A stretch of 64,000 bases of DNA, from NCBI GenBank assembly GCA_040437565.1, contig JBDOQK010000006.1:248001-312000 (forward strand). Direction: 5' to 3'. Shown in pieces: positions 5,957-38,986 of the stretch. The position numbers and the translations under genes are program-made. This DNA is from Albugo candida (taxonomy: Eukaryota). Numbering within the stretch: the first letter of the stretch is position 1; each line of letters starts with the position of its first letter. The notes beneath the pieces were generated by a model. It was not told the DNA's origin. It worked only from the letters and a program-made list of their open reading frames with translations, and ran no database searches.

Positions 5957-8178
5957 TCAAAAGGCCATAAAGTTGACGGCACCTTGTTTTTTTAGTCGTG
6001 CCAATACAGGATTTGCTTCTTGATCGTTTATTTGTAACTTTTGCTTCTCTTGTAGTTGTTGATGTCGATCCCGTATGGAAGGTGGTCGTGTTTTCTTCCG
6101 TATCGAGTCAAGTTGAATGCAACCGGGTTGTTGGTCGACTTTTGGTGAAAGACTTTCACGCATCGAGCTGCTTGAATTCTCTGAAATACATCGCTTCTCA
6201 TCGAAATCACGCTGCAGATTCTCCCTTGAAGAGTGAAATGACTTAGAAAATGGCTTGATGCGTGTGGGGCTGTTGCTACTGCCAGTGTCCTGACCGGGGG
6301 CATACATTTGAATCCCGGGCTGTCTTTCATCGTCCGTATCCTCACTAGAAGAGCTGAAGAGATAGCTTCGTCTGCTGTCTGGTACCATCGTTGATTTGTT
6401 ACTATTACTCGCCCTGCCTTCTTCCTGCTGAGACTCCTCACCAAAAGACAAAGGCTCTAGCCCATGCTTTCGGTTTCGAGATCGAGCTTCGTCAATGGGT
6501 TCGAGTCGAGCTTCTTCAGCAGCATACGAGTCATCAAGCAAAGTTTGTTTCGGCACATGTGCAAACATCGTTTTTCGTCGATGCGTACTTTGACTTGATG
6601 GCAAAACGCCCGGCCGCATCCATTTCTCTGATTTAGGACGATCTTTTGCCACTACTTTACCCGATATTTTTCTTTCCTGATCACGAGGGTGACTTGATTG
6701 ATACGCTCGTTTTCGTATGGATTCTCGAGCTTGTAGTAATTTCTCTCGCTTTTCTTCGTCAGGTAGCAATTTTGCCATTTCCAGTATTATTTCAAAGCAA
6801 TTCTCTGCACCCAAGAGTCCATGCAAATACGCAGCCATTTCGCTCGCTTGTATTTTACCACGCCCAAACTCGCGAGTGGTATGATGGAACTCCTCGATCC
6901 GACCCTTTTGATTCGCGCGAACGAGTTGGACGATTTCCGCCTGGATTTTCTCCCTGCATTCCAAGTTTTCCTCATAAAGTACGTTTTCATATCTTCCTAA
7001 AGGTTGAATGCGGGAATCTGGACTGGAGACTATGGGCCACGCACATGTCTGAGTATCCGCTTGGGGTACGTCGTTCTCATCAGATGCAATCGCCACTCGA
7101 GCATCTTGTTGATCCATTGTCAACACTCTGTCGGGAGATTTCAATTCGTCTTTCACCGTCGACAAAAGCTTTTCTTGATTCGCGAGGTCGTCGACTTGGT
7201 CGAAAAAAATATCAAAATTGAGAGATTGCTTCAGTATTTCGGCAATTTGGGGATCCGCGCATACAATCGAAAGCGCTGTCAGCTGAATAACGCATTCGTG
7301 AACATGAATTTTTTCTCGAAATCACGGCAAGTTCAATACCTGGTCAAAGTAGAGTCCCATCTGCTGTTCCTTCAGTTCCTGCAGAAATCTCTTTCGAAGA
7401 CCTCGAAAGAATATAACATCTCGTCGTCGTTCTCTTGGGAAAACAAGGTGTTTCATAGAGGATTGTAGCATGGATTGCAGTGTTCTACACGAGAAGTCAG
7501 ATACAAACGTATCGAATGGTACCTTCCCTTACCGATGCAACGTCTGAAGCTCCGATTGTGATTTCCACACTGTCCACTCATGTTGTATCCACACCGATTT
7601 TTCCCTTGATAGAAACTTATTATCTTCCGCCTTATGTGACCAAAGAAAATCGCACGAAAGCTCAAACTCCTATTGTTACGTAATTTGCGTATGAGGTAGC
7701 AAGCACATATGGACAGGTTATACGTACAATTTGATCCGATTGCTCGTCTCTCAAGCTGCTGGTTACTCGTATTTTCATTTGTATGAGCTTTTTGTGAATT
7801 GGAAGTTTGATGCGATAGTCATCCGTTATGGCGCTGTAAATCGCATAAAACCAGGCGTCCAGGGTCGTGGTGTCTGTACTTTTCAATATGAATTTCTATG
7901 CAGTCTCTGATGTCAATACTCTCATAGTAATAGGAGATTCGTACCCTTGCGGAGGTCGTGTCGGGTCGCTTTGCCTCGTGAATAACCAAACCGTCGGTGA
8001 CTTGCTCCAGTTGTGCTTGCTTCAGACTCACACGACCCAGCAATTGTTTCATTCGTTGATCTTCGGAAGAAGCATATAGCAATTGCTTATCAGCGTGTCG
8101 AAGCTCAAGAAATACTCGATTCTGTAGATCTCCGCGTTGCAAAATAACGATTCCTCGCATCTGCTTTACAACTTTCAT
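5957..8178 (-). CDS. Five-exon 669-aa protein: PH-like domain, PX-like domain, ZNF598/Hel2-like helical domain, low-complexity tail
   Basis: Exons 8178-7945, 7895-7728, 7669-7533, 7484-7340 and 7282-5957 splice in frame over GT-AG introns of 49, 58, 48 and 57 nt. PH-like: LLGRVSL...KFILKSTDTTTLDAWFYAI. PX-like: WTVWKSQSELQTLHRTLQ..LVFPR..RKRFLQELKEQQMGLYFDQL. Confidence 0.75.
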
Positions 8179-11514: not shown

Positions 11515-13765
11515 ACGTTTACGAGCTCATTTTGAGTCACAAGGCGAAGTCACTGACGCAGCTGTAGTCTTCACAAAAACCGACAAAAAATCACGTCGAT
11601 TCGGATTCGTTGGTTATAAAACGAGTGAGCAAGCTCGTCGCGCATGTGCGTATTTTCATCAAACTTATTTCGACAGCTGCAAAATAAACGTATCATTCGC
11701 TCTGCGGGTAAGTATTCAATTCCACTACAAACGTATCTCATATTTCCCGTGACAGAAAGCAGAAGAATCTTCTTATGGCATTCGACCTTGGAGTAAATAT
11801 TCGAAAGGTAGCTCGCAATTTGAAGCACAGCATAACACAAATGAAAAGAAACGAAAGTTGGCGTCGAAAAATACGACAGGAGCCAATCAAACCGATAAAT
11901 TTGAAGAATTCGCAGAAACTATGAAAGCGCGATCCAAGGCACGATTTTGGGCAAATGACGATGTGCAGAATGTTGAAACATCGATTCAGAAGAAAGAAGA
12001 AGACGGACTTGAAGTGGCAGAAACGTCCAATAGCGATTCTTCGGATGATACGATACGTCACTTATCAGACATGGAGTATCTTCGGTTTAAAGCTGCTAAA
12101 CGAGCAAAAAAACAGTCTTTGAAGATAGAAGAGAAGAAAAGCGATAAGAGCGATCACCCATCAGAGCCGAGCGCGGAAAAAGTACTCCATGGAATCCCAA
12201 GCGAGAATGATGCTGCATTTGTGTCAAATCGACTGTTTGTTCGCAATTTACCATATTCGGCTATGGAAGAAGATCTCAGAGCCATATTTGAGGCATCCAA
12301 AAAGGTCACAGAGGTTCATATTCCCTTAGATGAGACCAAGCGCCGTAAAGGTTTTGGTTTTGTTTTGTTCGAAACCGCGTCGGACGCACAAAAAGCACTC
12401 GTAAGTGTCGATGGAACAGCATTCCAAGGCCGAGTTTTACACGTGACATTTGCCGAAGCAAAACCAGAACAGGCAGCTGACCCGACGGATAATTCTCTGT
12501 CGTATCGAGAAAAGAAAACCCTCGAAAAACAAGCCAATGCCAACCAACCGATTGGTTGGAATGCCTCGCATATTCGAAGTGATGCTGCTGTTGGTACATT
12601 AGCTAGTCGCATGGGGATCGCCCGAAGCGATGTGCTGAGTCAAGAACATGGAAACATGGCGGTTCGGCTCGCACTCTGTGAAACTATGCTTGTCAAGGAA
12701 AACAAAGACTTTTTTGTCAATCACGGTGTCGACTTGTCAGCGATTCAGGGAGCTCTAATTAGCACCGACAAATCGGAAGCGAAAACGGAAATTTTGAGAA
12801 GCACAACTGTAATCTTGATCAAGAATTTACCGCATACGACTGAAGAAAATGAATTATGCCAAAAATTTGGTAAGTTTGGACAGATTTTGAAATTTCTATT
12901 GGCTCCTTCCAAAACCGTTGCGTTGATTGAGTTTGTCGAAGCTTCTGAAGCTCGAAAAGCATTTCGTTCTTTGGCGTATCGAAAGTACCAGCATGTTCCT
13001 TTGTATCTGGAATGGGCTCCATTGCACGTCTTCACGACAAAGTCGATAGAGTCGCAGAGAACGAATCCGGGCATCGTTGAAGCTGATCTCATGGACGAGC
13101 AAATCGGTGAAGCACCTTGCGTGGAGCTTCGGAATACGCTCTGTTTGAAGAATTTGAGTTTTACAACACGTGAGTCAACTTTGGAAACCTATTTCGGCAG
13201 ATTTGGGAAATTACGTAAGGTGACCATTGCCAAAACACGAGACAAACGAGGCGGCATTTTATCCATGGGATTCGGTTTTGTGGAATTTGCTGACGAAAAC
13301 GATGCACAGAATGCGCTCTCTGTTTCGGAACAGTCGTCTCCAGTTATTGATGGACATTCTTTGAGTGTCACGCTTTCACAGAAAAAGGTGGAGCGGAACA
13401 AAACGGATCAATATGGAAAAAGCTCATCGAAAATCATTATCAGAAATGTGGCGTTCGAGGCCACTATTCGCGACATCCGACACTTATGTGGAGCTTTCGG
13501 ACAACTGAAACGGGTTCGTATGCCCAAAAAATTTGATGGTCGACATCGTGGATTTGCGTTTGTTGAATATATGACGGAGCAAGAAGCGAAAGATGCGTTC
13601 AATTCACTGTGCAAATCGCATTTATATGGCCGCCATTTAGTATTGGAATGGGCAGAAGAAGAGGAAAACTCGGTCGAAAGTTTGCGAATTAAAGCTAAAC
13701 GAGATCTAATGTCACTATCAACCCCGCAAAAATGCGTACAAGAAGAAGACGATTTCTCAGAGTAG
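11438..13765 (+). CDS. RBM19: Multiple-RRM pre-rRNA processing protein RBM19/Mrd1, spliced (5' end also copied at 11199)
   Basis: Five RRMs (RLYVRNLP..SRRFGFVGY; RLFVRNLPY; ILIKNLP..PLYLEWAP; SMGFGFVEF; HRGFAFVEY..HLYGRHLVLEWAE) and the AVRLALCET linker. Confidence 0.92.
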
Positions 13766-13871: not shown

Positions 13872-15158
13872 TTATGTGAAACTCATCAAATGACATAATA
13901 ATTCTTCATCCTCTTTCTTGACAAATCGACCTTTGACTCGTAACCTTGAATTCGCAAATTTTTTCCGCACGTCATAATCAACTTTTTTGGCCCAAACTCG
14001 CCGTTTTCGTTTCTCCATAAACCGTTCGATGCGTTTCTTACGCGCTTCGGGGGAATAGCTTCCAATACATCGATCTGAATGAACCGACTTATCCGGGGAC
14101 TTGAAATTTATACTTTTACCATGTTTGGTTCTGCTGCTTGAAATCTGCATTTGCTTAAATTCTTCCAGATGTGCATGATCAAACTCTCCATTCTCGCATT
14201 CATCTTCAGATGAACTAATTGATCCAAGCCGATGGCCTCGTGGTTGCTTTTGACGCAGACTCCACAGATTGGTGTGTTCAATGCTTGTAGGGCTGTAACG
14301 ATGCTCCTGCGATACGTGACCTACAACCAGTGACCGCGCTTTTCGGATCAAAATCGGTTTGGACACTGATCGCTGACAGTACGCCGCAGCACACAAGTTA
14401 TCCAGTGAGATCTCATTAATCGTTGGCGTGGGTCTTTGAAAATATCTTCTACATGCTTCGATGTCCATTNNNNNNNNNNNNNNNNNNNNNNNNNNNNNNN
14501 NNNNNNNNNNNNNNNNNNNNNNNNNNNNNNNNNNNNNNNNNNNNNNNNNNNNNNNNNNNNNNNNNNNNNGCATTTGCTTAAATTCTTCCAGATGTGCATG
14601 ATCAAACTCTCCATTCTCGCATTCATCTTCAGATGAACTAATTGATCCAAGCCGATGGCCTCGTGGTTGCTTTTGACGCAGACTCCACAGATTGGTGTGT
14701 TCAATGCTTGTAGGGCTGTAACGATGCTCCTGCGATACGTGACCTACAACCAGTGACCGCGCTTTTCGGATCAAAATCGGTTTGGACACTGATCGCTGAC
14801 AGTACGCCGCAGCACACAAGTTATCCAGTGAGATCTCATTAATCGTTGGCGTGGGTCTTTGAAAATATCTTCTACATGCTTCGATGTCCATTCCCTGAGG
14901 AATCATTTCCACATCGTCCTCTGATCGAGAATCATCAGATAGCTCTTGCGTTGTATCGCTATATGCTTCGCTGTACTGTCTTCTGTGATAACCGTTGTAT
15001 CCATCAAGCGGATAAAAAGCTGCCAGTGATTTTGCCACATATAATTCCGTTTCATGGAAAGTATTCTGACGATATTTCCTCGCGTCATGCAGTAGAGAAC
15101 GGTTGGCCAACGCTCGATCAGATAATCGCATAAGTGTTTCTGCGACTTCGTTATCCAT
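13872..15158 (-). CDS. CCT-domain protein (CONSTANS/TOC1-type motif), about 287 aa after collapsing the duplication
   Basis: C-terminal IGSYSPEARKKRIERFMEKRKRRVWAKKVDYDVRKKFANSRLRVKGRFVK; no B-box or receiver domain visible. Confidence 0.85.
   Translation of the reverse strand: MDNEVAETLMRLSDRALANRSLLHDARKYRQNTFHETELYVAKSLAAFYPLDGYNGYHRRQYSEAYSDTTQELSDDSRSEDDVEMIPQGMDIEACRRYFQRPTPTINEISLDNLCAAAYCQRSVSKPILIRKARSLVVGHVSQEHRYSPTSIEHTNLWSLRQKQPRGHRLGSISSSEDECENGEFDHAHLEEFKQMXXXXXXXXXXXXXXXXXXXXXXXXXXXXXXXXXXMDIEACRRYFQRPTPTINEISLDNLCAAAYCQRSVSKPILIRKARSLVVGHVSQEHRYSPTSIEHTNLWSLRQKQPRGHRLGSISSSEDECENGEFDHAHLEEFKQMQISSSRTKHGKSINFKSPDKSVHSDRCIGSYSPEARKKRIERFMEKRKRRVWAKKVDYDVRKKFANSRLRVKGRFVKKEDEELLCHLMSFT
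14147..14892. repeat. Gap-flanking duplication 14147-14469 = 14570-14892
   Basis: 323 bp repeated; creates a false internal repeat in the 428-aa ORF. Confidence 0.95.
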
Positions 15159-15536
15159 AACAATGTTTTGCTTCTGTTGTGCTTACTTTTGAATTGTGAT
15201 TGTTTACGTGCATGAGGCGAACAGCGTATAAATATTTCATTCCGTACAAATTCGTATAAATTGCGAATAGAGTGTTCATATTGCGTCAAAGTCCTTTCTG
15301 GTACACTGTCGTGGTGAAGCCACGCATAGTTTAAAATTTATGAGCGAGAAAGCCAAACAAGTCGGTGGGACATACTTGTGTGGGTTTTACCGTTTGTACT
15401 TTCCTGACGTTTTCTCTTTTTTTTCTACCTTTTCTAATTATTTGACTATTTTGACAGACCGCAGCATCTAGGGGACGGGCTTGATTATCAAATTTAGAGC
15501 TCCTATTCGAACCTCCTAGAAAGTATAAGATATTAC

Positions 15537-16626
15537 ACAGTTTGGGTCCTGAATTCCGACGGACCAGTGGATCATCTTTTAGTCACAAAGGTTTTAATGT
15601 CTCAAAAAGCTCGTGCGACACTAAACTCGTCTTATGCGACATCACCCATTTCAAAATTACATTTTCGTCTAATTCTTCATGGTATACGTCAACTACTTTT
15701 CATCCTTGAGTGTCGTAACCGACATGGCAGCATTACGCTTGGAAATTATAAAAGCTGCTCCTAAGCAAAGCAGCGCCCACAGTCCCCAAAATAAAACAAT
15801 CCGAAACCCAATTCGATACGTACATGCTCGATCACATCCTACATGAGCCTTGTTAAGTGTGGCACCCAAAGTTGATTCGGTGACCTCCACCGATTGCTGT
15901 TTTAGAATCAGATTCATTATCAGACCCGGCACATAATTTGAAGCTGCGTAACCAAGAAGATTGTAGCTTGTGTACGCAACTGATGACGCCAGAGGTCGAA
16001 GCCGATTCGGTGCGGACGAAATGACGATACCNNNNNNNNNNNNNNNNNNNNNNNNNNNNNNNNNNNNNNNNNNNNNNNNNNNNNNNNNNNNNNNNNNNNN
16101 NNNNNNNNNNNNNNNNNNNNNNNNNNNNNNNACAGTTTGGGTCCTGAATTCCGACGGACCAGTGGATCATCTTTTAGTCACAAAGGTTTTAATGTCTCAA
16201 AAAGCTCGTGCGACACTAAACTCGTCTTATGCGACATCACCCATTTCAAAATTACATTTTCGTCTAATTCTTCATGGTATACGTCAACTACTTTTCATCC
16301 TTGAGTGTCGTAACCGACATGGCAGCATTACGCTTGGAAATTATAAAAGCTGCTCCTAAGCAAAGCAGCGCCCACAGTCCCCAAAATAAAACAATCCGAA
16401 ACCCAATTCGATACGTACATGCTCGATCACATCCTACATGAGCCTTGTTAAGTGTGGCACCCAAAGTTGATTCGGTGACCTCCACCGATTGCTGTTTTAG
16501 AATCAGATTCATTATCAGACCCGGCACATAATTTGAAGCTGCGTAACCAAGGAGATTGTAGCTTGTGTACGCAACTGATGACGCCAGAGGTCGAAGCCGA
16601 TTCGGTGCGGACGAAATGACGATACC
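15537..16626. repeat. Gap-flanking duplication 15537-16031 = 16132-16626, one mismatch seen
   Basis: 495 bp repeated; A15957 versus G16552. Confidence 0.95.
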
Positions 16627-18054
16627 AGAGCAAGCAGGTAAAATGCTAGCGCCGAAAAATAGCATTGTCCATAGAAAGAATGCAATGTACAATGTGTTGT
16701 GTATAAACGACACAGGAAGCGAAGCCGCACATGCCAAAGCTCCAAACACGACGCAAACCTGCAAGGCAATCGCTTCTTGTGTGGCCCCAGCGTATCCGCC
16801 ACATTGGTCGATACACCAACCCCCGAAAAAGACTCCAAGAATAGGACCTGTCCCACTCACCACGAGGTACGATAAGTGGATCGAGTACATCGAGTCACTT
16901 GTATTGGTCGACAAATATAAAGTGGTCCAAAATTGCACACCAGTTACGACGAAGAACAGCGCGGATAATGCGAGCACAATGCAAACATATACGCGAAGTT
17001 GTAAGAGTTCCATGCAATCTTTCCAAATATGATTGTCAAGGTCCTCTTCACAGGCTTTGTCGCATTCATCCGAGGAAGAGTTCTCCTCGCCTTGTTCTTC
17101 CTCAGAAAGCATGGAGTCTAGCACAAGTATTGGTTTCCGTCGTGGATTTTTCAACTTGACATTATCTTCAGGAACGAAAAATAAAAGCACGCTGAATGGG
17201 ATGAGAACAAGTGCTTGAAACAGGAACGGCCACCTCCAGCACAATATTCCACTGCATACCTGGTTTGCGCGAAGCTGTGAATTTTTGAGAACAATTTCGT
17301 CGCTAGTTCCAACATCGGGCGATGTCCACACTGTGACAGAACCCGCCAAATATCCAAGTGTGATGCCAATTGGTACTGCTGCTTGTAAATAACTCATCCA
17401 CCGAGCGCGTTTCGAGCGAGGCGCGTAATCATGTACCCATAGTGGAGAATATACGCAGTGAAATGCTTGGGAGCATCCAATGCACGCTCGGGAAATAATC
17501 AGCATAAATGTTGCATAAGACGCATCTTCTTTCGAGGGAGTTAATGCGAACAAACCAACTGCCAATATGTTCAAAACGAGCGTCCACGCGAGCACATTCC
17601 GAGGTGAGAATTTTTCAAACAGTGTGCTGCAGAAGGGAGATGCGAGTGATATTGCGATGTATACAATCGCACCCAGTAAGCCTTGCTCTTGCGGCGTCAA
17701 CACAAACGTAATCGTGAATGATTCGAGGAGCGCAGGTACTGCGCCAGCCTCGAGGTACATAAACACTTGAACGAGTAAGAGATAGCGAAATAAGTCTTCT
17801 GCCGTTGGCGATGAAATAGGCTCCGATATTGCCATAGAAGCTGCAATTCTTATTTTGTGAAAAGGAGAGGATAGAAAAGGAGTATCTGCAGGGACATCAC
17901 ACACAGTTGGAGGCGCTGTAGTGTTGTCAATAGTCTCGGTTTCATCCATTTGTTCTAGCTTTTGTATGGCGCCGTACGAATTGGAAGGTGCGTCACCCGT
18001 CTCTTTCATAATTAATGAATTCTTGCCTTTACGCACTAGATTCATGTACCGCAT
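16288..18054 (-). CDS. Major facilitator superfamily transporter, Spinster-like
   Basis: About 12 hydrophobic segments in two bundles. MYLEAGAVP, QGLLGAIVY, SRACIG, YSPLWVHDYAP, WRWPFL, GGWCIDQCGGY. Single exon; start could be a downstream Met. Confidence 0.88.
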   Translation of the reverse strand: MRYMNLVRKGKNSLIMKETGDAPSNSYGAIQKLEQMDETETIDNTTAPPTVCDVPADTPFLSSPFHKIRIAASMAISEPISSPTAEDLFRYLLLVQVFMYLEAGAVPALLESFTITFVLTPQEQGLLGAIVYIAISLASPFCSTLFEKFSPRNVLAWTLVLNILAVGLFALTPSKEDASYATFMLIISRACIGCSQAFHCVYSPLWVHDYAPRSKRARWMSYLQAAVPIGITLGYLAGSVTVWTSPDVGTSDEIVLKNSQLRANQVCSGILCWRWPFLFQALVLIPFSVLLFFVPEDNVKLKNPRRKPILVLDSMLSEEEQGEENSSSDECDKACEEDLDNHIWKDCMELLQLRVYVCIVLALSALFFVVTGVQFWTTLYLSTNTSDSMYSIHLSYLVVSGTGPILGVFFGGWCIDQCGGYAGATQEAIALQVCVVFGALACAASLPVSFIHNTLYIAFFLWTMLFFGASILPACSGIVISSAPNRLRPLASSVAYTSYNLLGYAASNYVPGLIMNLILKQQSVEVTESTLGATLNKAHVGCDRACTYRIGFRIVLFWGLWALLCLGAAFIISKRNAAMSVTTLKDEK

Positions 18055-18082
18055 ACTCTATTCTTGGAACATTAGGAAAGTC

Positions 18083-22059: not shown

Positions 22060-24854
22060 ATGGAATATATCTGGAGCCAAATGCATAATCTCCTTGCTAC
22101 TTCGAAAGAAAGCGAGAAAGAGCTGCTTGAAAGACGTGAGTATGAACATCACTCGGAACTGATGGCCAAAAGTCAGCGCAATATCATCTTGGAAGACTTG
22201 GAAAATTCGGTTTTATCTCTTGAACGCTTCGTTTCGAGACTAAAATCGCCACACAAACCTTCGGGACATGACTCTACACCCGCTATGATGGAAAGCGTCG
22301 ACGAGAAACAGAGCTTTCTGAATGATAACTGTAAACTTGTGTCGGCGCTGTGCACAAATATTGATCGTTGTGTATCCCACGGGCTCCGGCCAATACATTC
22401 AAAAGATGATCCGAGTACTGTTCAATTCTTTGGGCTTCTGAAATGGACATACACCCGAGTGGAAGCTCTTCGTCAACGTCAACTCGCTTATGAGATGCAA
22501 GCCGCATCCACATCGATGAAATATAAGTCGAACGCTTCGAATGTGTGTGAGGTCGTGACGCAAAGTATGGAAAACAAACAACCAAGACACATTCGAGGCT
22601 TCTTTGCAGCTATTCGCACGGCATCTAGTCTTTCCAATGTGCAATCGGATGAGGGTAAAACACGTGCGTTCATACGTCAAGCTCTCAATATGCATTTGCT
22701 GAAGGATTGCATGGAACTTGTGCTTGCTGATAACAATTTGGATCTCCTTGAATCGTATTACACCACTTCAGCACTGTTTCGACAGAGAGTAAGTTGGTTT
22801 ACCGCACCGATTTCCTTCAAATAAATTTTCACTGATAGAATGAGATCAAGATGTTCCGAAGCCTCCTCTCGAGTTTGGAGAAGCATTTTTTCACATTCAT
22901 GGTGGATGATCCACGACTTGATCTACCGCCAGATATTCTACCCTTTTCTAAGCCGTTGCCTCGCCCCCAAAGCAAGAAAATCCAAAGAAAAGGGCCGGCG
23001 CTGATTGAACCGGAAGATATGATCTCTGGGAATATTCGTCTCTGCGAGGAAGATACTGTGACCGCGCTTTTGACGGAAAAATTAATGTCATATCACGAGC
23101 TTTATGCGTCATTTGGAACGCAAAAAGGAGGAAATGTGCTGGCCAAAGTTTTGCAAAATGCGCAACAATCACAAAAAATCAGTGATGCGAGTACAGCTGT
23201 CCTTCGATTTTTTGAGCTTGGATATCCAGAATACCAAGTTTTTGGTACAGAGCTTGTAGATGTTGTGTGCAATCCATTCTTGAGTAGTATGGCACGCTTT
23301 GATACATCCATGGGCATTCCTGACGTTTTAGAAACGTGTTTCAGCTATCTGTATGAGCAGGTCGATACACCGGGTCTATTCCAGATTCACCTTGCTGCAG
23401 ATCATGTAATGGAGCTGAGAGATACTATCGAGGAAATCGGCGCTTATCACAACAAAATGATTGTCGATGTCCATGAAGCAACAGCCATTCTCTACCAGTA
23501 TCTGTGGGAAATTCCCGAGGCACTTTTTACCGAAGAGCGGAACGAGAACTTCTTAGCTTGCGTTCGTACAAATGATCCAGCTAGCGATCCACTCAAATAT
23601 GAAGAGCAAGTCCAGCTGCTCCAAGTTCTCGTCAACGATCTCCCATGGTATGTCAAGCCCTTGCTTGAAAGACTTTGCAATTTGATCGCACTGGCGCTAA
23701 AGCCTCAGCACGCACAGAAGAATGGGCTAACACCGTACGCGGTAGCCCATGCATTTGCGCCTATTTTATTTCGCGGACGCCAGCAAGATTCCTTTTGGGA
23801 GTATGAAGATGCCAACTCTCGGAGATACGCAATCGGCCACCAGATTCCTGTCAGCGTTCGTGCGCGTCTTCTCGATTTGGATGATCTAGATGATCACAGA
23901 TCAATTGATCAAATAGCCATGCAGACTCGCATGATTCGGCAAATCAAGCAGAATGCTGAAGATGGTGCAACAGTGCTCAGAATATTGTTCCAAGAAGAAA
24001 CTTCAATCTTGCAGGAATTCCGAGGAGAGTTACGAGTGAAGAGAAAATTGTTGCAGAAAAAAGTATCTACCATAGAACGTGTTAGATTCCAGCTGGAAGA
24101 AGAAATTGACGTTGGCAAGGAGGAGCATGCGAAACTCGTGAGAGAACTTTGGGAGCGTTTGTTGCGTAGGAATGGAGAAGAAGAGGAGTTTCATTGTATC
24201 GAAACACTTTTAGCATCGTCTCGATGGCAGCAGAGTGGCTTTCATACAAACAATCCGCTTGGAGGATTTCGTGGCGGTGGGTTACTGGGCTTGAAATGTC
24301 TCAATTACTTCATCGAGACGTACTCCGACAAAGCAAGAGAGATGATGGAGCGAAATGCCGCGCCTGGAGGAAACCGCTATCCTTTCCCTGTCGCCAGTAT
24401 CAATGTGTTGCGTATGATGATGAAGCTTTTGATGCTTGATGAGGCTCCAGATGTTTGCGGGAAGCTCGTGATGCATCATATTGATGATCCAAATGAACTT
24501 TCCCGTGTACAAATCAAGCCTTCCCCACCAATAATAAAACTTCGTGTAGCGGAAAGAGTTAGTCGAACCCCGATTTGGCGTGTTTTGGATGATCCTAATG
24601 CGCTACCAAAACTTTACTCCATGGCATTCATGTTATTGGATCTTCAGTGGGTCTCTTCTGGTGCAACTCAAATGGGTTTTCAGCCTGTTTTGGACGCCAC
24701 AAGACGCCAGATGGGATGGCTTCTAGAGCAAGGTCCTCAAAGCGTCGAAGAAATGTGGACGACATGGATTGGAATTCGTGGAGCACAAGCTTCAGAGAAC
24801 ACAGTAGTCAATCCTTCCAACCGGAATGGCAACACTGGTGAATGCATCGTCTAA
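22060..24854 (+). CDS. RUN + RhoGAP-like + ELMO/CED-12 domain protein, 2 exons (intron 22789-22838)
   Basis: RUN: LCTNIDRCVSHGL..FFGLL..EGKTRAFIRQALN..YYTTSALF. RhoGAP: VFGTEL..GIPDVLETCFSYL..PGLFQI..DVHEATAILYQYLWEIPEAL..NGLTPYAVAHAFAPIL. ELMO: WQQSGFHTNNPLGGFRGGGLLGL..YPFPVASINV. Confidence 0.88.
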
Positions 24855-24865
24855 AGGTCACTAAT

Positions 24866-26089
24866 TTAAAAATCGATTCTCTTCTCACACTTCTTATTCT
24901 GAGTCATCTCATTCATGTGATAAGCATTGTTCCACCAAAGATCTTGAGACAGCGTGGGGTCGAACATGTAAATGGAATCCCCAGCTTTCGTGATCCATCT
25001 CACGCGCCTTCTACCTGCAAATTTGCCACCATTGCGAGTCTTCCAGAAAAATGTGAGTGAATAAAGATTACATTTGGTCGGGATATGCATTTTGGCGTAT
25101 GCGTTGGCGCCTTCGAAATTACCGGGAGCGATCGGGTAGTCGGACCATTCGAATTTGGTCAGTGACACGTTGATATCGTATTCGCCGATTAGATGATTGC
25201 ATGTGTTGAGAAAAACAATTGGTCGATGCGATTGCGATGTTCCTTTTTTCCAGCTTTTATAGTGGATATCAGCCTTGTAGTGATGCATCATTGAGAACCA
25301 AGGATAAACGCTAGCTTTCTCTCCTCTTTCCCAGCATTGCGTCCCGGCATAATCGACTGAATAAATACTTTCATAGGGATACGAGCTTTTAGGATCTAGG
25401 TCGATATTTCTACATATAATCCATCACTCTGTGCATTCGGTATCGAAGTGTGACGCACCTATACTGTAAAGTTTTGATATCAGCCGTGCACTTCAATGTT
25501 GCACGCGTATACGTTCGCAGTAGTAAAGTTACGAGTTTATTTTCGGAAATGCGCTTGAGGTAATTATACGACGATTTGCTCCGGAAGACTATAAATAGTG
25601 TGCAGTGAAGTTGATCTGCATCCTGTTCTCTATCGAATTGAAAGAAAACTTTTACAAGCCCATTCTTGTTTCTCAGCTCGAATTCTGGCTGTCTGAATAT
25701 CGGTAAGCAACGGTGCAGCCACTGCAGCTCCGCATTTGAACATTCTTTCGTTACGCACATCTTCAAACAGTGCACGACTTCTTCAAGTATTCATAGACTT
25801 CTCTTAGCAAATGTTTGCATCGTTCCTGAAAAAAGCGAAAACATTCTATAGTGAATGACAACCCGAATCGCTTGACAAGTCATTGATCCGAATCGGTACT
25901 TATAGATGCAGCATGAGCAGGAGCACCCAACTTTTTAGACAAATTCGCAATCAAGTCAGTATACCATATGAGTCAGCACACTAATTTACAAAAGCAAAAG
26001 GTAAATAATTTGGAATTAGTTAGCGACTGCTCACAAATACCTTGCTTGTAGGACCCAAAAAAACCGAAAATCCAAATTCGCGTTATCAT
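24866..26089 (-). pseudogene. Orphan spliced gene, apparently disrupted in its 5' part
   Basis: ORFs 25410-25775 and 24866-25291 join in frame through a 49-nt GT-AG intron (25410-25458), giving about 290 open codons. There is an in-frame TGA at 25791-25793, and an upstream ATG (26089) with a canonical-looking intron (25981-26040) that does not splice in frame. Confidence 0.35.
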
Positions 26090-26664: not shown

Positions 26665-27498
26665 TTACTTTTTCTTTCGATCAGACACAATGATGGTGCG
26701 CTCATCAACATCAAACATATCCGGCAATACCTGCATGAGTTCGACTTGACATTCTCCTTGCAGTTGTATCTGTTGGACTCCAGAATCGCTCTTGATGATA
26801 GAAGCACTACAAGCAAATCGTTTTCCTAACTTTTTTGCGGCTTCCTTTATTGTCATTGGGTCTTCCAAATACTCTTCCAGTCCGCAAATTATAGTAACGT
26901 GCTTTCTGCCCTTACGAGAGCTTGTTGAAATGGTTATTGTTGATTTGGTTTGCTCACTTTTGCGGATAATTTTCTTTCTCGATTTCACTATTTTTGATGT
27001 TCCACTGATTTCCAGACTAATGTCTTTCACACCATCCGCAATTTGACGTTCTGCTTCCATCAAATCCTTCACAGTGCGACCATATTTCTGAAGATATAGC
27101 GTCGGGACCTCTGCAGCCAACCAAGCTTTACATTCGTCAAAACAAGGCCCATATTCACAGTACTCTGCAGGAAGCGAGTCTACTGGGCAATAAACAACTC
27201 GTCGAAGCTGATGAAGATCCTCTGTTTCTTCTACATTTTCCAGCGTATTGTCATCTTCTTCAATGGGGCTCATTGGTTCTTCGTCATTCGAATCATTGGA
27301 TTCATCATTGGAATCGCCAGGCTCTGGACCATATTTCCGTACCAATGCGTTAAATAGTTGATTTTCTTTCCCTTTATACTTTGATAAAACTACATCCACT
27401 TCTCTAATCTTCTCCGCATTGTATTTTTCGTAAAACGCAGTCAATCGTTCACGATTCCAAGAACTGATCTTGTCGTCCATTACGATATGTCGAGTCAT
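26665..27498 (-). CDS. DENR: Density-regulated protein DENR/Tma22 (SUI1 domain) with extra N-terminal module
   Basis: VVYCPVDSLPAEYCEYGPCFDECKAWL N-terminal DENR motif. C-terminal SUI1 domain RKGRKHVTIICGL..AAKKLGKRFACSAS..IQLQGE. Confidence 0.88.
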   Translation of the reverse strand: MTRHIVMDDKISSWNRERLTAFYEKYNAEKIREVDVVLSKYKGKENQLFNALVRKYGPEPGDSNDESNDSNDEEPMSPIEEDDNTLENVEETEDLHQLRRVVYCPVDSLPAEYCEYGPCFDECKAWLAAEVPTLYLQKYGRTVKDLMEAERQIADGVKDISLEISGTSKIVKSRKKIIRKSEQTKSTITISTSSRKGRKHVTIICGLEEYLEDPMTIKEAAKKLGKRFACSASIIKSDSGVQQIQLQGECQVELMQVLPDMFDVDERTIIVSDRKKK

Positions 27499-27651
27499 TT
27501 CAGTTAAGTTTCATGTGTATGTGTTAAGAGACAGCCGCATTTTTCGTGCATTAGAAAGCGCAATTCACGTAGACTGATCAAACAAAATATGCAAGTGTAG
27601 CTTTTTGATGTTTAAAAAGAAATCTAAACCGCTTAATTAAGCTTAGGCCTC

Positions 27652-31455: not shown

Positions 31456-34243
31456 TTAGCCATTTGCCAAACGCTCGGCACAGTCTTGGAGCACGTGATG
31501 TACTTTGTCTGGAAAGTGATCGTCCAGCATGGTTCGAGCGATTCGAATACTTTGAAACTTTTGGCGCTCCGACCAGCCAAAGCTGTAATCTGTACGCTCC
31601 GTGCAGCAGATTCCATTGCTTCCTGGCCGACAACAGACCCAGAAACCGCCCAGTTCTCTTGCTGTGATGCTTCTTTTGAGATGAATGAGACGACCAGGTA
31701 GAGTCAGATCATGAATGGGTTCCGCGTCCTGAATTCGGCGAAGCATTGTGCGGTAATTGGCAAGTTCTTGGGCGGTTTGACAAGCCTTCCGATTTGGTTC
31801 TTCCGACGCAAATAACAAATCTTGGGGCTTTTTCCATCGTAATGCTTGCTTGAGAATGTCAGATTTGCTCACTTTACTCCGTTCAATCAAATCGATCACT
31901 TTGTCGCGTAATTCTTCGGCCGAGCAGATGGACGCGCGTGCTACAATGTCGTTTCCAAGGACGACTGAAGTCACAAACTCCCCACATTTACTGGCAAGAT
32001 TTGGCGATACGACACAGCCAGGTGGGCTGAATGCAAAGCAATGAATATTCGGATACTTTGGGCGTAGCATGTTTGCTAATAAGACAGCGATTCCGGCACC
32101 AAGAGAATGTCCTGTCAGAACGAGACGATAGTGCTTGTACGATCCCATCTCGCACACATTGAGCTGATCATAGGCGATGAATGCATCTGACTCGGGGTTG
32201 TAAAGCATCTCCAGGACACCAAGTAATTCCAGGTTCAGGTAGAGGGCTTGAGCGGCATGGAGAAATCCTTGATGAGCAAATTCTCCAATACCATCGCATC
32301 CCCACCGCTTAGAGGTATCATCCATGGACATTCCATACGCAATTGCGTCTNNNNNNNNNNNNNNNNNNNNNNNNNNNNNNNNNNNNNNNNNNNNNNNNNN
32401 NNNNNNNNNNNNNNNNNNNNNNNNNNNNNNNNNNNNNNNNNNNNNNNNNNAGAACGAGACGATAGTGCTTGTACGATCCCATCTCGCACACATTGAGCTG
32501 ATCATAGGCGATGAATGCATCTGACTCGGGGTTGTAAAGCATCTCCAGGACACCAAGTAATTCCAGGTTCAGGTAGAGGGCTTGAGCGGCATGGAGAAAT
32601 CCTTGATGAGCAAATTCTCCAATACCATCGCATCCCCACCGCTTAGAGGTATCATCCATGGACATTCCATACGCAATTGCGTCTGTAAGACAATCCTCTA
32701 ATGACAATGTACCTCTTATGGTCAATATAACTTCCTCTTTGACATGGTCCAATATGATTGCGAATGCGGGATGATAGACAGAATTGTAGAAGGAAGCGTA
32801 CACAATATCACCTGAAGACACTCCTGTGACTAGCTGCAACGTGGCTTGGTGTAGATGCACCCAATTATCACCATGAATATATTGCCGAGGCCGCTTCCAG
32901 CATGAAAACGCTAATCGGAAAATACCTCTCCATGGATGAGACCAAACATAAAGCATCCAGCCGTATATTCCAATCGCGTACTTGGAGTGATACGCAAGAT
33001 TTCTCACTGTATCTCGAAGAAAAGGATCGTCTTCATTTAGCTCCGCTTGAAGCGCAGAAGCAGTAGTAATTCGTTCAGCTTGATTAGATTCGAGGTCTGG
33101 AGGCATTGGGGTATTCGGAGCAGCTAGATTAGAACCGATAGCTTGTGCATCATCTACCCAGTGTGTGCTAGTGTTTCCTGTACTAAATTCTTCCAAACGC
33201 TTTTGTGCAGCTTCTATCTTTCCTTCTCCCTTCACTTGAGCTCGATGAAGCAACCCAGGAAAGTCGTGCTCTAGCTGCATAGACTCCTCGTGAGCTTGAA
33301 CAGCTGCAAGTAAAATGTATCCTGCGACAATATCCGATATGACCAAGTCTGGGCTTCCGTAAAACAATCGCGCAAAAACAGTTGCCACAGCCGACATGGA
33401 GTCGTGCTGGGTGCCAGCACCTCCAAACAAATTGCAAGTGAGACAACGGAAGCACTGACAGCACGCGTGACATCGTCGCTCCCAATGCTCGCGTTGAGGA
33501 ATGTAAACATCCGAATTCGGTAATTCATCGGCATCTATGAGGAAAGAAGTGGCACACACACAGACAAAATATGAGATTTCGCTGCTTTAATGATATCAGA
33601 ATTTCGAAATTGATTGCCAAATGAATTGGAAACCATTCAAAAGGACGTTTTGTTCACAATCACTTGCACGAGGAAAAGCATCTGAATCCAATACATCCGA
33701 AGGCCGCACTCCGGTTAGCATACAGCACCCAAATGAAAAAGAGCAAAAGACTTGGAGTATCATTGCGATCGATATAAACTGTAAAACAGAATTGAAGATG
33801 TGCGTCTAAAGAGATAAAAGCATTCGTACCAAAACGCATTCTGCGTGAGAATACCCGCATTTTGAGGTGCGTTGGAAATAGAGATGAAGTCCCAAAAGGC
33901 CGAGGGAAAACATGAGTACTGACCAAATTATATGCACTTGCAGTACTTTTGGCATTAGAATACGTTTCTCTGAGTCAATAATTGTCCCTTTGGAGGCGAT
34001 ATGAGCGATAATCGTACATACACATATCATAAATGCATGAGAAAGCAGACTCAAAACACCAAACCAAAAGAAATTGTCGGCGAACGGAAAGCGCATATGT
34101 TTAGGACACGAATGCAGAAAGAATGTATAGATGAAACTGATACACAGCCATGGAAGTTGATACAATAGCTGTAGCAGCGAAGGATAATAGAAATCATCGC
34201 TTCCAACTCGACTGCGGCGACCACAGATGACGAGCGCAGGCAT
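31456..34243 (-). CDS. DAGL: Diacylglycerol lipase (DAGL-like, class-3 lipase with N-terminal TM helices), spliced
   Basis: MPALVICGRRSRVGSDD N-terminus, hydrophobic helices, DLVISDIVAGYILL, IRGTLSLEDCLTD, AHQGF, LTGHSLGAG, FAFSPPG, NDIVAR, MLDDHFP. Confidence 0.9.
32117..32684. repeat. Gap-flanking duplication 32117-32350 = 32451-32684
   Basis: 234 bp repeated either side of a 100-N gap. Confidence 0.95.
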
Positions 34244-34309: not shown

Positions 34310-37300
34310 ATGCTGCGATCAAAAAAGTCGCGTCAGAATTTAAATGAGACTTCCACCGCAGATGACACAAATTCACGAAAGCCGAGCAATCGAAAGCCTG
34401 AAAAAGATCAAGATGCATCTTCAGTCAATAGACTCTCTGATGAACTCAGTCAAAGCGGACATTCGCATTCTCTATCGCCTTCTTCTCGACATTTTGAGCG
34501 TCCACGCTTTGATTCTCGAGCTTCTTGGGCCGATTCGACTCGATTTGACCGCATGGATTCGAATGCTTCATTTGTTTCGTCTAAAGCATCGTTGAAGGCT
34601 TCTTCCTCCAACCGAATGCGCTCAGATTCCCGGGTCTCTACTTCTTCTCGGCTTTCAAGGATCTATCTGAACGATAAGAAAAAGCTTCGAAAATCGTCTC
34701 TTGCAGGATCGTACGTGGGAAGCAAGCGACCGAAAGATGGACCACTTTCAACCATTACGGAGAGCTGGAATCTTGGAGAGGATGGGGTGGAAGGACCATT
34801 TACGGGCTTTGGGGCTGAAGGTTGAAAAGATTACAAAAACTTGTAGCACTTTACTTATCTTATTGCATGACAGATCAGCCCATCCGTGATCAATTGCAAC
34901 TCGGAATGGATGTCGTGAATGACCATACGGTGAGGTTTGAGAGCTTCTTGATGAAGTAAGCTCATTGTGGAATGTAGTCTAGATTGAAAGAAATTGAAGA
35001 CGCAATCACCGCAGCAATGTCGGAAGTTTGGGGCTATTGGGTACATATACATTCTTAAAATCGATTTTTGTCTAAGATTGTCTTTAGGCAGATCCGATCC
35101 AGCTACAATTACATCCAGCAGAGCGTGTGGATGTACAGGAGCTTATTAATACCGACAATGAGCTCTTCAATAAAGTGCTCACAGTGTTTGCAGTATTATG
35201 TGACGAGATTTCTGAGCTTAAAGTGACGGTAGAANNNNNNNNNNNNNNNNNNNNNNNNNNNNNNNNNNNNNNNNNNNNNNNNNNNNNNNNNNNNNNNNNN
35301 NNNNNNNNNNNNNNNNNNNNNNNNNNNNNNNNNNTAGGCAGATCCGATCCAGCTACAATTACATCCAGCAGAGCGTGTGGATGTACAGGAGCTTATTAAT
35401 ACCGACAATGAGCTCTTCAATAAAGTGCTCACAGTGTTTGCAGTATTATGTGACGAGATTTCTGAGCTTAAAGTGACGGTAGAAGATACTTTCTACCCCG
35501 CGCTGTCTATGTTTGGGCAGCCTCATCACGGCCAAGGCGAATCAGAGGAAGACAAACAAGAAGGAGTTCACAAAGCCGGAGAATCTGAAGTTTTTATTGG
35601 ACGAATGCTACCATTTTTTCAAGATCTTTCCAACTTTGTGGATCGATGTAACGCGATCACGCTCAATATTCTGCACCAGCTGGCAAGTTTGTACCAAAAC
35701 TATCAAAAACTATGGAAGTCTACGTTCAAGATGGTGCATCTTCATCCTGTTTTTGATGCATTGGCAAGTCTGCTGGAAGTGATGATTACAATCGATTTAC
35801 TTGTGGCTGACAATACGCACATTGCGGTTGCTTGGGACAAGTATAAGCGAATGATGCAATATGTCCGCTCTGATCCAGCTCGATACGATGTCACAGTCGA
35901 CGCTGTCAAGCAATTTGAGCGTCTACTTGTGAGCTTGGATCAGACGATTATGAGCGGCCAGGTATTCCAGACCTGTATTGAGCAGGATTTTGAGGCTTTT
36001 GGTACCGAATTTGAAGATCAAGATCGCGAAGAGAGTGATTCCGGAAAACCAAGCGAAAGCGAGGATTGTTCTTCGCGTATAGAGCTACGAAGCAATCAGG
36101 TTTTCCTGGATGAATTTTTATATTGCATTAGTGCACGTTTGAGCAGGAGCGAAGTCGGTATCAATACATCCACGGAAACATTCGAACGTCAGCAAATTAT
36201 TGGAACAGCAGGTCTCTATGTCCTTCATCGTCGCCTTCTGCCAACGAGTGTCGCTCCAGATCCTCAGTTGTACAAACGCTTTTGGGAGCTGCAGCGTAAA
36301 GCTCCCTGTGTTACACTCTGTGGTAAACTCTTATGGCACTTGCCGGAATTTCTACTTAAATATGCTCCGATGACGTCAAAAAAGCTGCAACCGACCGATA
36401 TACTTGAATTTCGGAAGGAATATCTCTTATTGCTGGATGAAGCTTTTGCCGATGATATCGCAGCCGCAAAGATGGAACTCACAGCTTGGTTGGCTCGTGT
36501 GGAGTCGTATTTCCAGCCAACAACTCGCGGATGTGGTGATCCACTCCGAATTTTGAGCATTCGTGGCAATCTCATGCTCAAGGGACTGATGCTGGCGAAA
36601 AGAGTGCAGACGATGATGCACACGCTTGTCAATATGCACTTATCACAAAGAATTCCAATGCCAAAACGTGTCGTACGGCCTCTATATCTTTCTATTGAAG
36701 TTCTCAAAGCGATCGAATTCATGTTAGCACGAAAGAATCCAGTGTTAGCCGAGTCGTTTGCGCTCATTCTCCAACAGGTGGCATATGCTTTGTTTGGATG
36801 TTTCCGACCCCTGAAAGCAAAATTGGAAGCCAGCAAGAAGTTTGATGACACAAAACTCGATATACTGGCGGCTGTGACAGTACTAGAAGAGATTTTGACT
36901 ACCGGGGAATCGTTCTCGTACACGAGAATCACAATCTTGGATCTAGCCGCTCAAATCGCACTCATCTCTTCCGAAATGAGCTTTGACGATGAAGGAACGG
37001 ATCCATCAGATGGAGCGGTACCCGGTGATTCTGCGCGTGGCAGTCTTCGTGATGGGGAAGAGCCTGTCAAACTAATTTGGAAATTACGCTTACTGAGTGA
37101 TTATCAGCGTAAAATTCGAAACGCATGCGATTGCTCGTTCTTTCACTGGAACCACGAGCTGCTACATTCCTTTTTGGGCGATCTCTATGGCCAACCCGAA
37201 CATGCTAATCGCATTCAGTACATAATCAGCGGTTTCCTGGATGCCGTCAGAGTCCTAAAGAGCGTCCAACACGAAGCTGATAATGAGATATTCACAACAA

Positions 37301-38986
37301 TGTACGCGAAATTCATCGACAGTGTTTTGGAGGAGGAGATCGTACAGAATTTATGCAAGGATGTTGAGAACGATCTTCGACTTCATATCCATTCGGTGCA
37401 TTTGGATCATCTTGAGACACCGAATCCAAAAGAAACTCCCGATTTCAAAGTACTTCTTCACTATCTCAACCTCCGGCCTATTCGCATGTATGGACACTTT
37501 GTTGATCTACGATGTCGTGTGACGCATTACTTGGAGAAAACTTTTTATAATCTAACGACCGTGGCACTCCATGACTGGAAAACGTATGGAGAAATGCGCA
37601 ATTTGGCGAACGATAAGTACGCACTCAATTTGGCCGACAACCACCTTCCGATGGGCTCACTGAACCAAGGATTGGACATATTACAGATTATGCGAAATAT
37701 CAAGATTTTCGTGGCACGATACAATTACAATCTGAACCAGCAATTCTTTCTCGAACGACGAAGCGATAAAGGCTCACGTCATCTCAATTCGATTAATATT
37801 CATTCAATAGCAAGTTCCATTCGAACGCACGGAATGGGAATTATGAACACTACTGTCAACTTTACATATCAATTTCTGACAAAAAAGTTTGATATTTTCT
37901 CACAATTTCTGTATGACGAATACATCAAGTCATACCTTCAACGAGAAAAGAGGTGGTATCGTAAGAACCGAGACGATGCTTTGGTAGATAATAAGTATCC
38001 ATACGCTCGAGCTTTTCAATTCAATAGAGACATCCGAAAGCTTGGGGTTTCAGATTCAGGAAAGAGTTTCTTGGATCAGTTTCGAGTGCTTATCACGGAA
38101 ATTGGCAATGCGTTAGGATACGTTCGTATGGTTCGTTCGGCAGGAATGAATTATTGCAGCAATGCCATCAAATTTGTACCGGATTTGAATCAGGCACATT
38201 TCAGTTTCGAGGAGCATACGCAACAACGAATCGTAGAAACAGACTCGACACGAATCCCTGCGGCTGTCTTTGATGAATCGGATGTGAAGCCATTATCCGA
38301 CGAAACAATGGTTGCTGCACAACAATTGGACAGTGTTATTGCAACGTTGGCGAAAAATTTCTCTGAAAATAATAATTATTTTCAAATTTTGGTCCAAGTG
38401 TTCCAAAATGTTATCAATAGTATCGAACAGAAGCATCTCGTGAATTTCTATCATATTATTCCGGCTCTGACAATCAATTTTGTGGAGACAATTGTCCAGG
38501 CAAAAGATCTGATGTACAAGAATACCCGACGCCGAGAATCCTACTTTTCTGACGACGGATTCGCGATTGGTGTGGCTTATATATTGGCCATGTTGGATCA
38601 AGGCGATGTACGTATTTTGATGTTTATTTGGTTGTAATCGGGTGATATGATATTTGTGTAGGTATTTGATACTTTGCATTGGTTTGAAGAAGTCAGAAGA
38701 AAATACAACGAGGAAGAGCGGCTGTATAACGTACGCTACTTTTGTCGACGAAAGAATACCGATGCTGACCGCAGCATGTGCTGATTAGGAGAAACAAGTG
38801 CTTCGGGATGGCCGTAAGAAAGAAGTAGCAGCACGAAAAGAGAAAGAGACAACGGCAGAGTTGATCGAAGATGAAGAAGAAGATCATGCTTTACAAATGA
38901 CTGCAAAGCGAATCGAGTTGCATCGTCGAGAATTTGATTTACTTGATTGGTCACTGAACGGAGCTCGAATATTTTTCAAGGAGTAA
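34310..38986 (+). CDS. WASHC4: WASH complex subunit 4 (SWIP/KIAA1033), 6 exons, with Ser/Arg-rich N-terminal extension
   Basis: Introns 34821-34873, 34930-34977, 35041-35087, 38608-38661 and 38731-38788 keep frame. SRLKEIEDAI..WADPIQL..INTDNELFNKV, FYNLTTVALHDWKTYGEMR, SIRTHGMGIMNTTVNFTYQFL, FSDDGFAIG, ARIFF. Alternative start 34268. Confidence 0.93.
35085..35484. repeat. Gap-flanking duplication 35085-35234 = 35335-35484
   Basis: 150 bp repeated either side of a 100-N gap. Confidence 0.95.

Follow-up and report, generated by a model that had tools for sequence, protein, structure and literature searches.

We analysed a window of 64,000 nucleotides from Albugo candida (assembly GCA_040437565.1, contig JBDOQK010000006.1, positions 248,001 to 312,000 of the forward strand), which holds at 22060-24854 (+) a single gene of two exons and 914 codons (243 + 671), encoding a RUN domain, a RhoGAP-fold domain and an ELMO domain on one protein. 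This anatomy of gene and protein is almost certain. The RhoGAP-fold domain has a glutamine at the position of the catalytic arginine finger, and the ELMO domain retains the arginine of the motif by which ELMOD proteins act as GTPase-activating proteins (GAPs). On our preferred reading, which we consider evenly poised between right and wrong, the ELMO domain would make the protein a GAP for the Arf/Arl family, the conserved RhoGAP-like domain would bind without catalysing, and the PLEKHM-like RUN domain would serve for recruitment. The gene belongs to a larger family in which nearly all members keep only one of the two catalytic arginines. The features of the gene are the following, with positions counted from the first letter of the window and residues of exon 2 numbered within that exon.

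22060..22788, + strand: exon 1, 243 codons from the first ATG following an in-frame stop; N-terminal region and most of the RUN domain
22348..22907, + strand: RUN domain, split by the intron, end approximate (Pfam and orthologue P0004)
22789..22838, + strand: intron of 50 nucleotides, phase 0, GTAAGT...CTGATAG (read from the sequence)
22839..24854, + strand: exon 2, 671 codons and TAA stop (24852-24854) (open frame)
23319..23777, + strand: RhoGAP-fold domain without arginine finger, exon 2 residues 161-313 (Pfam, AlphaFold2, Foldseek)
23382..23384, + strand: CAG codon of Gln182 (exon 2) at the arginine-finger position, inside GLFQIH (alignment to solved RhoGAPs)
23904..24098, + strand: long helical hairpin between the GAP-type domains, exon 2 residues 356-420 (AlphaFold2 helices 356-385 and 392-420)
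24084..24692, + strand: ELMO domain of the ELMOD type, exon 2 residues 416-618 (Pfam, Foldseek)
24225..24302, + strand: ELMOD GAP motif, residues 463-488, with Arg478 (CGT, 24270-24272) (consensus comparison)

The two exons belong together, as neither of them contains a complete RUN domain, which extends across the intron. On exon 1 the RUN match (PF02759, 50.1 bits against a cut-off of 22, residues 97-242) ends at profile position 106 of 131, having begun at position 2, and it does so at the final residues of the exon. The RUN match of orthologue P0004 covers residues 118-289 (profile 2-130) and thus extends 23 residues beyond the equivalent of the junction at residue 266. Over its full length, exon 1 aligns with residues 1-262 of protein P0003 from Globisporangium splendens (45% identity, E 5e-69), and exon 2 picks up at residue 263 of the same protein, directly after the equivalent of exon 1. 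The predicted splice 22788/22839 brings the end of exon 1, CGACAGAGA, together with the start of exon 2, AATGAGATC, and the resulting junction ALFRQR|NEIKMF aligns without a gap with the continuous ALFRQRDEVKMF of the orthologues. The sequence-only reading had described three GTPase-related domains in one two-exon frame, and the Pfam results agree, with RUN found on exon 1 and RhoGAP and ELMO_CED12 on exon 2. That reading had also allowed for the exons being split into two genes, and this is contradicted by the position of the RUN domain and by the presence of RUN, RhoGAP and ELMO on a single protein in 43 of 46 relatives. These two observations likewise speak against an artefact in which two adjoining genes were read as one; an artefact of this kind, or a sequencing error having produced the glutamine, has next to no probability. 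The split could draw on an in-frame ATG at 22851 in exon 2, where the unnamed entries P0001 (99% identity) and P0002 (83%), both of 667 amino acids, start; these entries come from contigs of 4117 and 2675 nucleotides and are probably open-frame predictions unable to cross the intron. The sequencing error is at odds with the invariance of the glutamine across orthologues. A scan for bacterial promoters and terminators, irrelevant for a eukaryote, gave results at chance level (6 against 6.1 expected and 3 against 3.6 expected).

The 46 relatives mentioned above were retrieved in a word-index search with exon 2, and all the named ones are oomycetes, belonging to the genera Phytophthora, Nothophytophthora, Plasmopara, Pythium, Globisporangium, Saprolegnia, Aphanomyces and Achlya; the combination of RUN, RhoGAP and ELMO is precomputed for 43 of them. 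Most of the named proteins have about 960-1050 amino acids and show 47-59% identity over 96-100% of exon 2, with approximately 52-59% in Peronosporales/Pythiales and 47-49% in Saprolegniales, values that would suit an early-branching peronosporomycete, for instance a relative of the white rusts. In the ESM Atlas the proteins form an oomycete cluster of their own with 71 members (RhoGAP in 100%, ELMO in 100%, RUN in 99%), beyond which the Atlas returned generic RhoGAP clusters only, below 0.8. Searching the word index with the family alignment yielded 52 proteins, comprising the orthogroup again, with P0219 as the sole new member, and five generic RhoGAP proteins, and a second search of this type returned the first query sequence alone. 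P0219, a record of 1646 amino acids from Thraustotheca clavata, also lists PF09787 and may be a fused gene model. The TLDc domain (PF07534), typical of the wider family treated below, was matched by Pfam nowhere in exon 2, where the stop lies 53 codons beyond the ELMO match, and it is listed for none of the 46 relatives.

The RhoGAP fold is supported by both sequence and structure comparisons. Pfam gives a RhoGAP match (PF00620) of 62 bits against a cut-off of 24.5 (E 7.3e-17), and Foldseek against the PDB matched solved RhoGAP domains with target TM-scores mostly of 0.71-0.88, including p50RhoGAP-RhoA complexes. The arginine finger of catalytic RhoGAPs, located in a G-x-[FY]-R loop, is absent, with glutamine in its place. 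In HMMER alignments Gln182 stands opposite the finger arginines of the myosin-IXb RhoGAP (GLYRKSG, 5c5s) and ARHGAP12 (GIYRVSG, 6gvc), which confirms the CAG codon at 23382 that the sequence-only reading had singled out. According to hidden Markov models made from the family alignment, the finger position is glutamine in all 47 orthogroup rows covering the site (one further row lacks the region), and in the 23-row orthologue alignment Gln182 is invariant. The conservation check proposed for the change from arginine to glutamine in oomycete orthologues therefore came out clearly, with arginine in none of the 47, and because the glutamine recurs throughout these rows it is not a sequencing error. 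Among the 23 orthologues, 38% of the positions in the finger loop and the next helix (residues 172-232) and 24% of the whole RhoGAP domain are invariant, compared with 2% of the linker after the domain and 8% of the helical hairpin. Judging from these alignments, the RhoGAP-like domain is conserved and not decaying, and the glutamine at the finger position is genuine, old and under selection.

Whether the glutamine itself could serve catalysis has to be considered here. In such a case the RhoGAP-like domain would still act as a GAP through Gln182 or another residue, perhaps on a GTPase without a catalytic glutamine of its own, an idea that we regard as improbable. The strict use of glutamine in the orthogroup, as opposed to A, T, S, V, Y or E in other branches without the arginine, suggests selection for glutamine itself, and the loop and helix around it are strongly conserved. 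This conservation is equally explained by binding, however, and for a glutamine finger in a RhoGAP fold we know of no precedent and found none in the literature listed. Furthermore, in the helix following the finger, the lysine and arginine of VLKQWLRELPEPL in the solved structures are replaced by tyrosine and tryptophan in this protein (ILYQYLWEIPEAL).

For the ELMO domain, Pfam reports ELMO_CED12 (PF04727) with 110 bits against a cut-off of 23.3 (E 1.8e-31) over profile positions 4-176 of 176, and Foldseek against the PDB matched ELMO2 (6ie1) and ELMO1 (6tgb). The GAP motif reads WQQSGFHTNNPLGGFRGGGLLGLKCL, laid out as W-QQS-GFH-TNN-P-L-GG-FRGGG-LLG-L-KC-L. Compared with the ELMOD GAP consensus WX3G(F/W)QX3PXTD(F/L)RGXGX3LX2L (as quoted from East et al. 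2012 in PMC8483735), 10 of the 13 fixed positions are kept, the arginine among them, and the three changes are Q to H, T to G and D to G. The motif thus retains Arg478 and departs from the consensus just as the sequence-only reading had it. The arginine is present in all 47 orthogroup rows that cover the site (one row is without the region), the H, G and G substitutions are invariant or nearly so among the orthologues, and the motif region, with 55% of its positions invariant among 23 orthologues, is the most conserved stretch of the protein. The importance of the residue in related proteins is indicated by its replacement with lysine, which is reported to abolish the activity of mammalian ELMODs and the function of MCR/ELMOD_A in Arabidopsis (PMC8483735).

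Instead of being a GAP, the ELMO domain could also work as it does in ELMO/CED-12 proteins, regulating a DOCK-type exchange factor as its partner. The Pfam family is common to these proteins and the Foldseek matches are ELMO1 and ELMO2 structures, and the idea is nevertheless very improbable. The domains that define ELMO proteins, ELMO_ARM (PF11841) and the C-terminal PH domain (PF16457), gave no Pfam match at E ≤ 1 in either exon, while both were detected in P0153 and P0188, true ELMO-type matches of the phmmer search described below. The presence of an ELMOD-type arginine motif also argues against a DOCK partner, as does the description of ELMO proteins as opisthokont-specific (PMC8483735, PMC12077222).

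The nearest solved relatives of the RUN domain, identified by profile, are those of PLEKHM2 (8jca, E 8.2e-10) and PLEKHM1 (8jc5, E 2.7e-8). Besides its RUN domain PLEKHM2 has PH domains, and a PH family match was found in neither exon at E ≤ 1 (Pfam). The RUN domains of PLEKHM2 and PLEKHM1 are said to bind Arl8b, going by the title of a reference. Some NCBI records call the oomycete orthologues 'Pleckstrin homology domain-containing family M member 2', and this name is misleading because the likeness is limited to RUN and no PH domain was found.

A structure predicted with AlphaFold2 from a 60-row alignment including distant relatives reached a predicted local distance difference test score (pLDDT) of 80.9 and a predicted TM-score (pTM) of 0.74. 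The block means of pLDDT were mostly 82-98 in the RhoGAP region and over the greater part of the ELMO region, and 72-97, mostly above 88, in the hairpin between them. Gln182 and Arg478 were placed in the fold by sequence alignment. A model from the 23-orthologue alignment (A1) was discarded, having a pLDDT of 55 with residues 112-226 below 50.

The wider relationships of the protein were explored with phmmer over 1.84 billion cluster representatives, resulting in 790 matches at E ≤ 0.001, and the taxonomic range given here is that of the best 150 of the 790. From these 150, 41 long matches were scanned with Pfam together with 6 other proteins (3 orthologues and 3 cluster-mates), and names were sought for 30 representatives. 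The protein has phmmer matches in several stretches, with homology along RUN, RhoGAP and ELMO in that order, and it groups inside the family tree. RhoGAP and ELMO were found together in 24 of the 41 scanned long matches, 16 of which also have RUN and 15 a C-terminal TLDc domain; all four domains are present in 10, as well as in two further cluster members. The usual form of the family carries TLDc as a fourth, C-terminal domain, which the branch of the window gene is without. The named taxa are Platysulcus tardus, Blastocystis sp., the labyrinthulomycete Mucochytrium quahogii, Nannochloropsis oceanica and the dinoflagellate Durusdinium trenchii, in addition to oomycetes, where paralogues were named in Aphanomyces, Achlya, Saprolegnia and Peronospora. 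In the maximum-likelihood tree the oomycetes have at least three paralogue groups of the family, including paralogues with the RhoGAP arginine kept and the ELMO arginine lost. Family members and orthologues have been given automatic names such as 'Rho-GAP domain-containing protein' or 'ELMO domain-containing protein', and those with TLDc are often called 'Oxidation resistance protein 1'. A sister paralogue from Saprolegnia diclina, P0061, has an SH3 domain at its end in place of TLDc.

The sequence-only reading did not recognise the architecture from animals, fungi or plants, and no named animal, fungal or plant protein with RUN, RhoGAP and ELMO was present among the matches examined. Nor, within the best 150 of the 790 matches, did the architecture turn out to be common across eukaryotes, all the named taxa being stramenopiles or a dinoflagellate. 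The architecture is confined neither to this gene nor to oomycetes, the gene representing one branch of a larger family. The TLDc domain is reported to define V-ATPase-interacting proteins (PMC8608904), and its presence in the paralogues suggests that the family acts at acidic endomembranes.

To compare the two catalytic positions across the family, we used 38 rows with both domains. Rows in which one of the two positions is missing were left out, as were redundant cluster-mates, and the 47 orthogroup rows were represented by 5. The catalytic columns are the same with two alignment methods, and the rows are distributed as follows.

RhoGAP arginine only: 18 of 38 rows
ELMO arginine only: 16 of 38 rows
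both arginines: 2 of 38 rows
neither arginine: 2 of 38 rows

Exactly one catalytic arginine is thus kept in 34 of the 38 rows. The residues replacing the RhoGAP arginine are Q, A, T, S, V, Y and E, and those replacing the ELMO arginine are Q, T, E, S, N, A and G. The Pfam ELMO score amounts to 48-143 bits in rows with the ELMO arginine, whereas rows that have lost this arginine score 23-46 bits or give no ELMO match. The arginine states fall into clades on a quick maximum-likelihood tree (880 columns, with support only from the Shimodaira-Hasegawa-like approximate likelihood ratio test, and including one row with a very long branch and nine with unusual amino-acid composition). The orthogroup of the window gene joins a Saprolegniales clade with alanine at the finger and the ELMO arginine kept (support 92), and deeper proteins from Platysulcus and Blastocystis are without the RhoGAP arginine and possess a near-canonical ELMOD motif, GFQ..P..DFRGGG. 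Both arginines are kept in two lineages, P0074 and P0114/P0218, which could resemble an ancestral double GAP. P0070 and P0145/P0243 (Nannochloropsis oceanica) represent one ochrophyte lineage in which both are lost (E and G).

Taken together, these features can be arranged into a possible mechanism. The ELMO domain would be the working catalytic centre, a putative GAP for a GTPase of the Arf/Arl family that uses Arg478 as ELMODs do. The RhoGAP-like domain would no longer stimulate hydrolysis, and its conserved surface may bind a Rho-family GTPase or another ligand, by analogy with OCRL1. Through its PLEKHM-like RUN domain the protein would be brought to endolysosomal membranes by an Arl or Rab in the GTP-bound state. 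A double GAP may have been the ancestor of the entire family, with each branch keeping one arginine. The hub proposed in the sequence-only reading, which would couple Rab/Arl and Rho/Rac status to Arf inactivation, is a reasonable hypothesis.

Several observations weigh against this mechanism and the history behind it. Foremost, the ELMO motif has Q changed to H, T to G and D to G, the latter two directly before the F-R of the motif, and these changes could abolish or retarget GAP activity; it is mainly because of them that we give the catalytic ELMO reading no more than even standing. The RUN domain resembles that of PLEKHM only modestly (E 8e-10 in the profile search, 0.0097 in the search with the single sequence), and this likeness leaves the ligand unspecified. 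The pattern of arginines stems from few events, with a minimum on the tree of 2 changes for the RhoGAP arginine and 3 for the ELMO arginine, and the rows that keep both or neither, two of each, depart from it. Only 2 independent pairs are available (sign test p = 1, no power), and for this reason we make no statistical claim of co-evolution. Finally, even the family members with the finger arginine do not retain the lysine and arginine of the helix that follows it, and the RhoGAP competence of these members is therefore likewise only putative.

Some of the same observations would fit a pure scaffold or effector, in which neither GAP-type domain is catalytic and GTPases are only bound through the RUN, RhoGAP-like and ELMO surfaces. 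The glutamine at the RhoGAP finger and the invariant departures next to the ELMO arginine (H for Q, GG for TD) are in line with such a protein, and family rows with neither arginine (P0070, P0145) indicate that non-catalytic forms exist. Still, we consider a pure scaffold unlikely, given that the ELMO arginine is retained throughout the 47 orthologue rows within the most conserved stretch of the protein, and that the Platysulcus and Blastocystis relatives, which are also without the RhoGAP arginine, have an almost canonical ELMOD motif.

A more far-reaching and rather doubtful scenario may also be offered. A protist ancestor with two GAP activities on one chain, a RhoGAP and an ELMOD-type Arf/Arl GAP, tethered by RUN and TLDc to endolysosomal membranes bearing V-ATPase, would have split reciprocally, such that in each paralogue one GAP remained catalytic and the other became a sensor for the opposite GTPase family. 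Oomycetes have both kinds of paralogue, which together would then constitute hard-wired cross-talk from Rho to Arf and from Arf to Rho, and the conserved glutamine might form part of a non-hydrolysing clamp on a GTP-bound Rho-family protein.

The sequences themselves are already in public databases and all four domains are known, whereas the domain combination and the pattern of one arginine or the other appear undescribed. We found no description of RUN, RhoGAP and ELMO in one protein, with or without TLDc, in the searchable literature, although East et al. 2012 and Seidl et al. 2011 might list the architecture. In the main text of a study of oomycete domain fusions (PMC2705460), ELMO, RhoGAP and RUN are unmentioned. 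ELMO-domain proteins are usually divided into two classes, the small ELMOD GAPs and the opisthokont ELMO proteins, to which DIX-ELMO was added as a third in 2025 (PMC12077222). The two-class picture looks too narrow, and the gene presented here represents a further class which is widespread in stramenopiles and occurs also in a dinoflagellate. Other combinations seen among the matches are BEACH, WD40 and ELMO (P0165), ELMO_ARM, ELMO and protein kinase (P0179), SH2 and ELMO (P0130), and ELMO and TLDc without a RhoGAP match (P0069).

While no established principle is altered by these findings, the family brings two unrelated GAP folds together on one chain, mostly with the catalytic arginine in only one of them, and thereby lends itself to research on the conversion of GAP domains into binding modules. 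It is equally suited to studying the link between Rho-family and Arf-family signalling on membranes, and it opens a testable way into the regulation of Arf/Arl proteins in oomycetes, which include important pathogens of plants and animals.

The surroundings of the gene are gene-dense (G+C approximately 0.38-0.45), and the proteins encoded around it are of ordinary eukaryotic kinds, showing no evident connection with it. A candidate frame of 185 amino acids at 24869-25423 (-) lies tail to tail with the gene, the gap to the stop being given as 12 nucleotides, and it has no Pfam match at E ≤ 1e-5. At 35338-38634 (+), about 10 kb away, a frame of 1099 amino acids matches the N-terminal domain of WASH complex subunit 4 and the middle and C-terminal domains of subunit 7 (SWIP-like; E to 1e-140); it is an endosomal actin-regulator gene, and no functional link is implied. 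The frame at 1195-3348 (+) has Toprim_2, AAA_25 and DnaB_C matches and looks like a Twinkle-type organellar primase-helicase. Further features assigned by Pfam are the following.

5960-7321, - strand: ZNF598 PAH domain
11753-13762, + strand: four-RRM protein
13875-15182, - strand: CCT-motif protein
16291-18057, - strand: MFS transporter
26668-27510, - strand: DENR/SUI1
31459-32568, - strand: class 3 lipase
39087-40733, - strand: helicase-associated (HA) domain protein

Among known systems, the ELMOD proteins (ELMOD1-3 of mammals and MCR/ELMOD_A of Arabidopsis), which are non-canonical Arf/Arl GAPs, have in common with the window protein the ELMO domain and, in the GAP motif, the arginine and 10 of the 13 consensus positions in all. 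They differ in being of the small ELMO-only type, whereas here the ELMO domain makes up the C-terminal third of a 914-amino-acid protein, behind RUN and a RhoGAP fold, and the motif has H, G and G at three fixed positions. The ELMO/CED-12 proteins are distinguished by their ELMO_ARM and C-terminal PH domains, both of which the window protein is without. With PLEKHM2 (SKIP) and PLEKHM1 the likeness is confined to the RUN domain, and in the window protein no PH domain was found at E ≤ 1.

The RhoGAP-like domain of OCRL1/INPP5B offers the closest parallel to the glutamine-bearing domain, both being RhoGAP folds within a trafficking protein and without catalytic competence, which for the window protein is our inference. 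The OCRL1 domain is described as catalytically inactive and yet binding Rac1, Cdc42 and peptide motifs (PMC4278560). Unlike OCRL1/INPP5B, the window protein has neither a 5-phosphatase nor an ASH domain, and its inactivity and binding are those expected by analogy. TBC1D24, in which a TBC RabGAP domain is joined to TLDc, may serve as an analogy for the wider family only, as a GAP-type domain fused to TLDc; its GAP fold is another one, it has no homology outside TLDc, and the window gene is without TLDc. The proteins with RUN, RhoGAP, ELMO and TLDc share with the window protein the order of its three domains as well as homology recognisable over the full length, and many of them keep the RhoGAP arginine and lose the ELMO arginine, the reverse of what is seen in the window gene.

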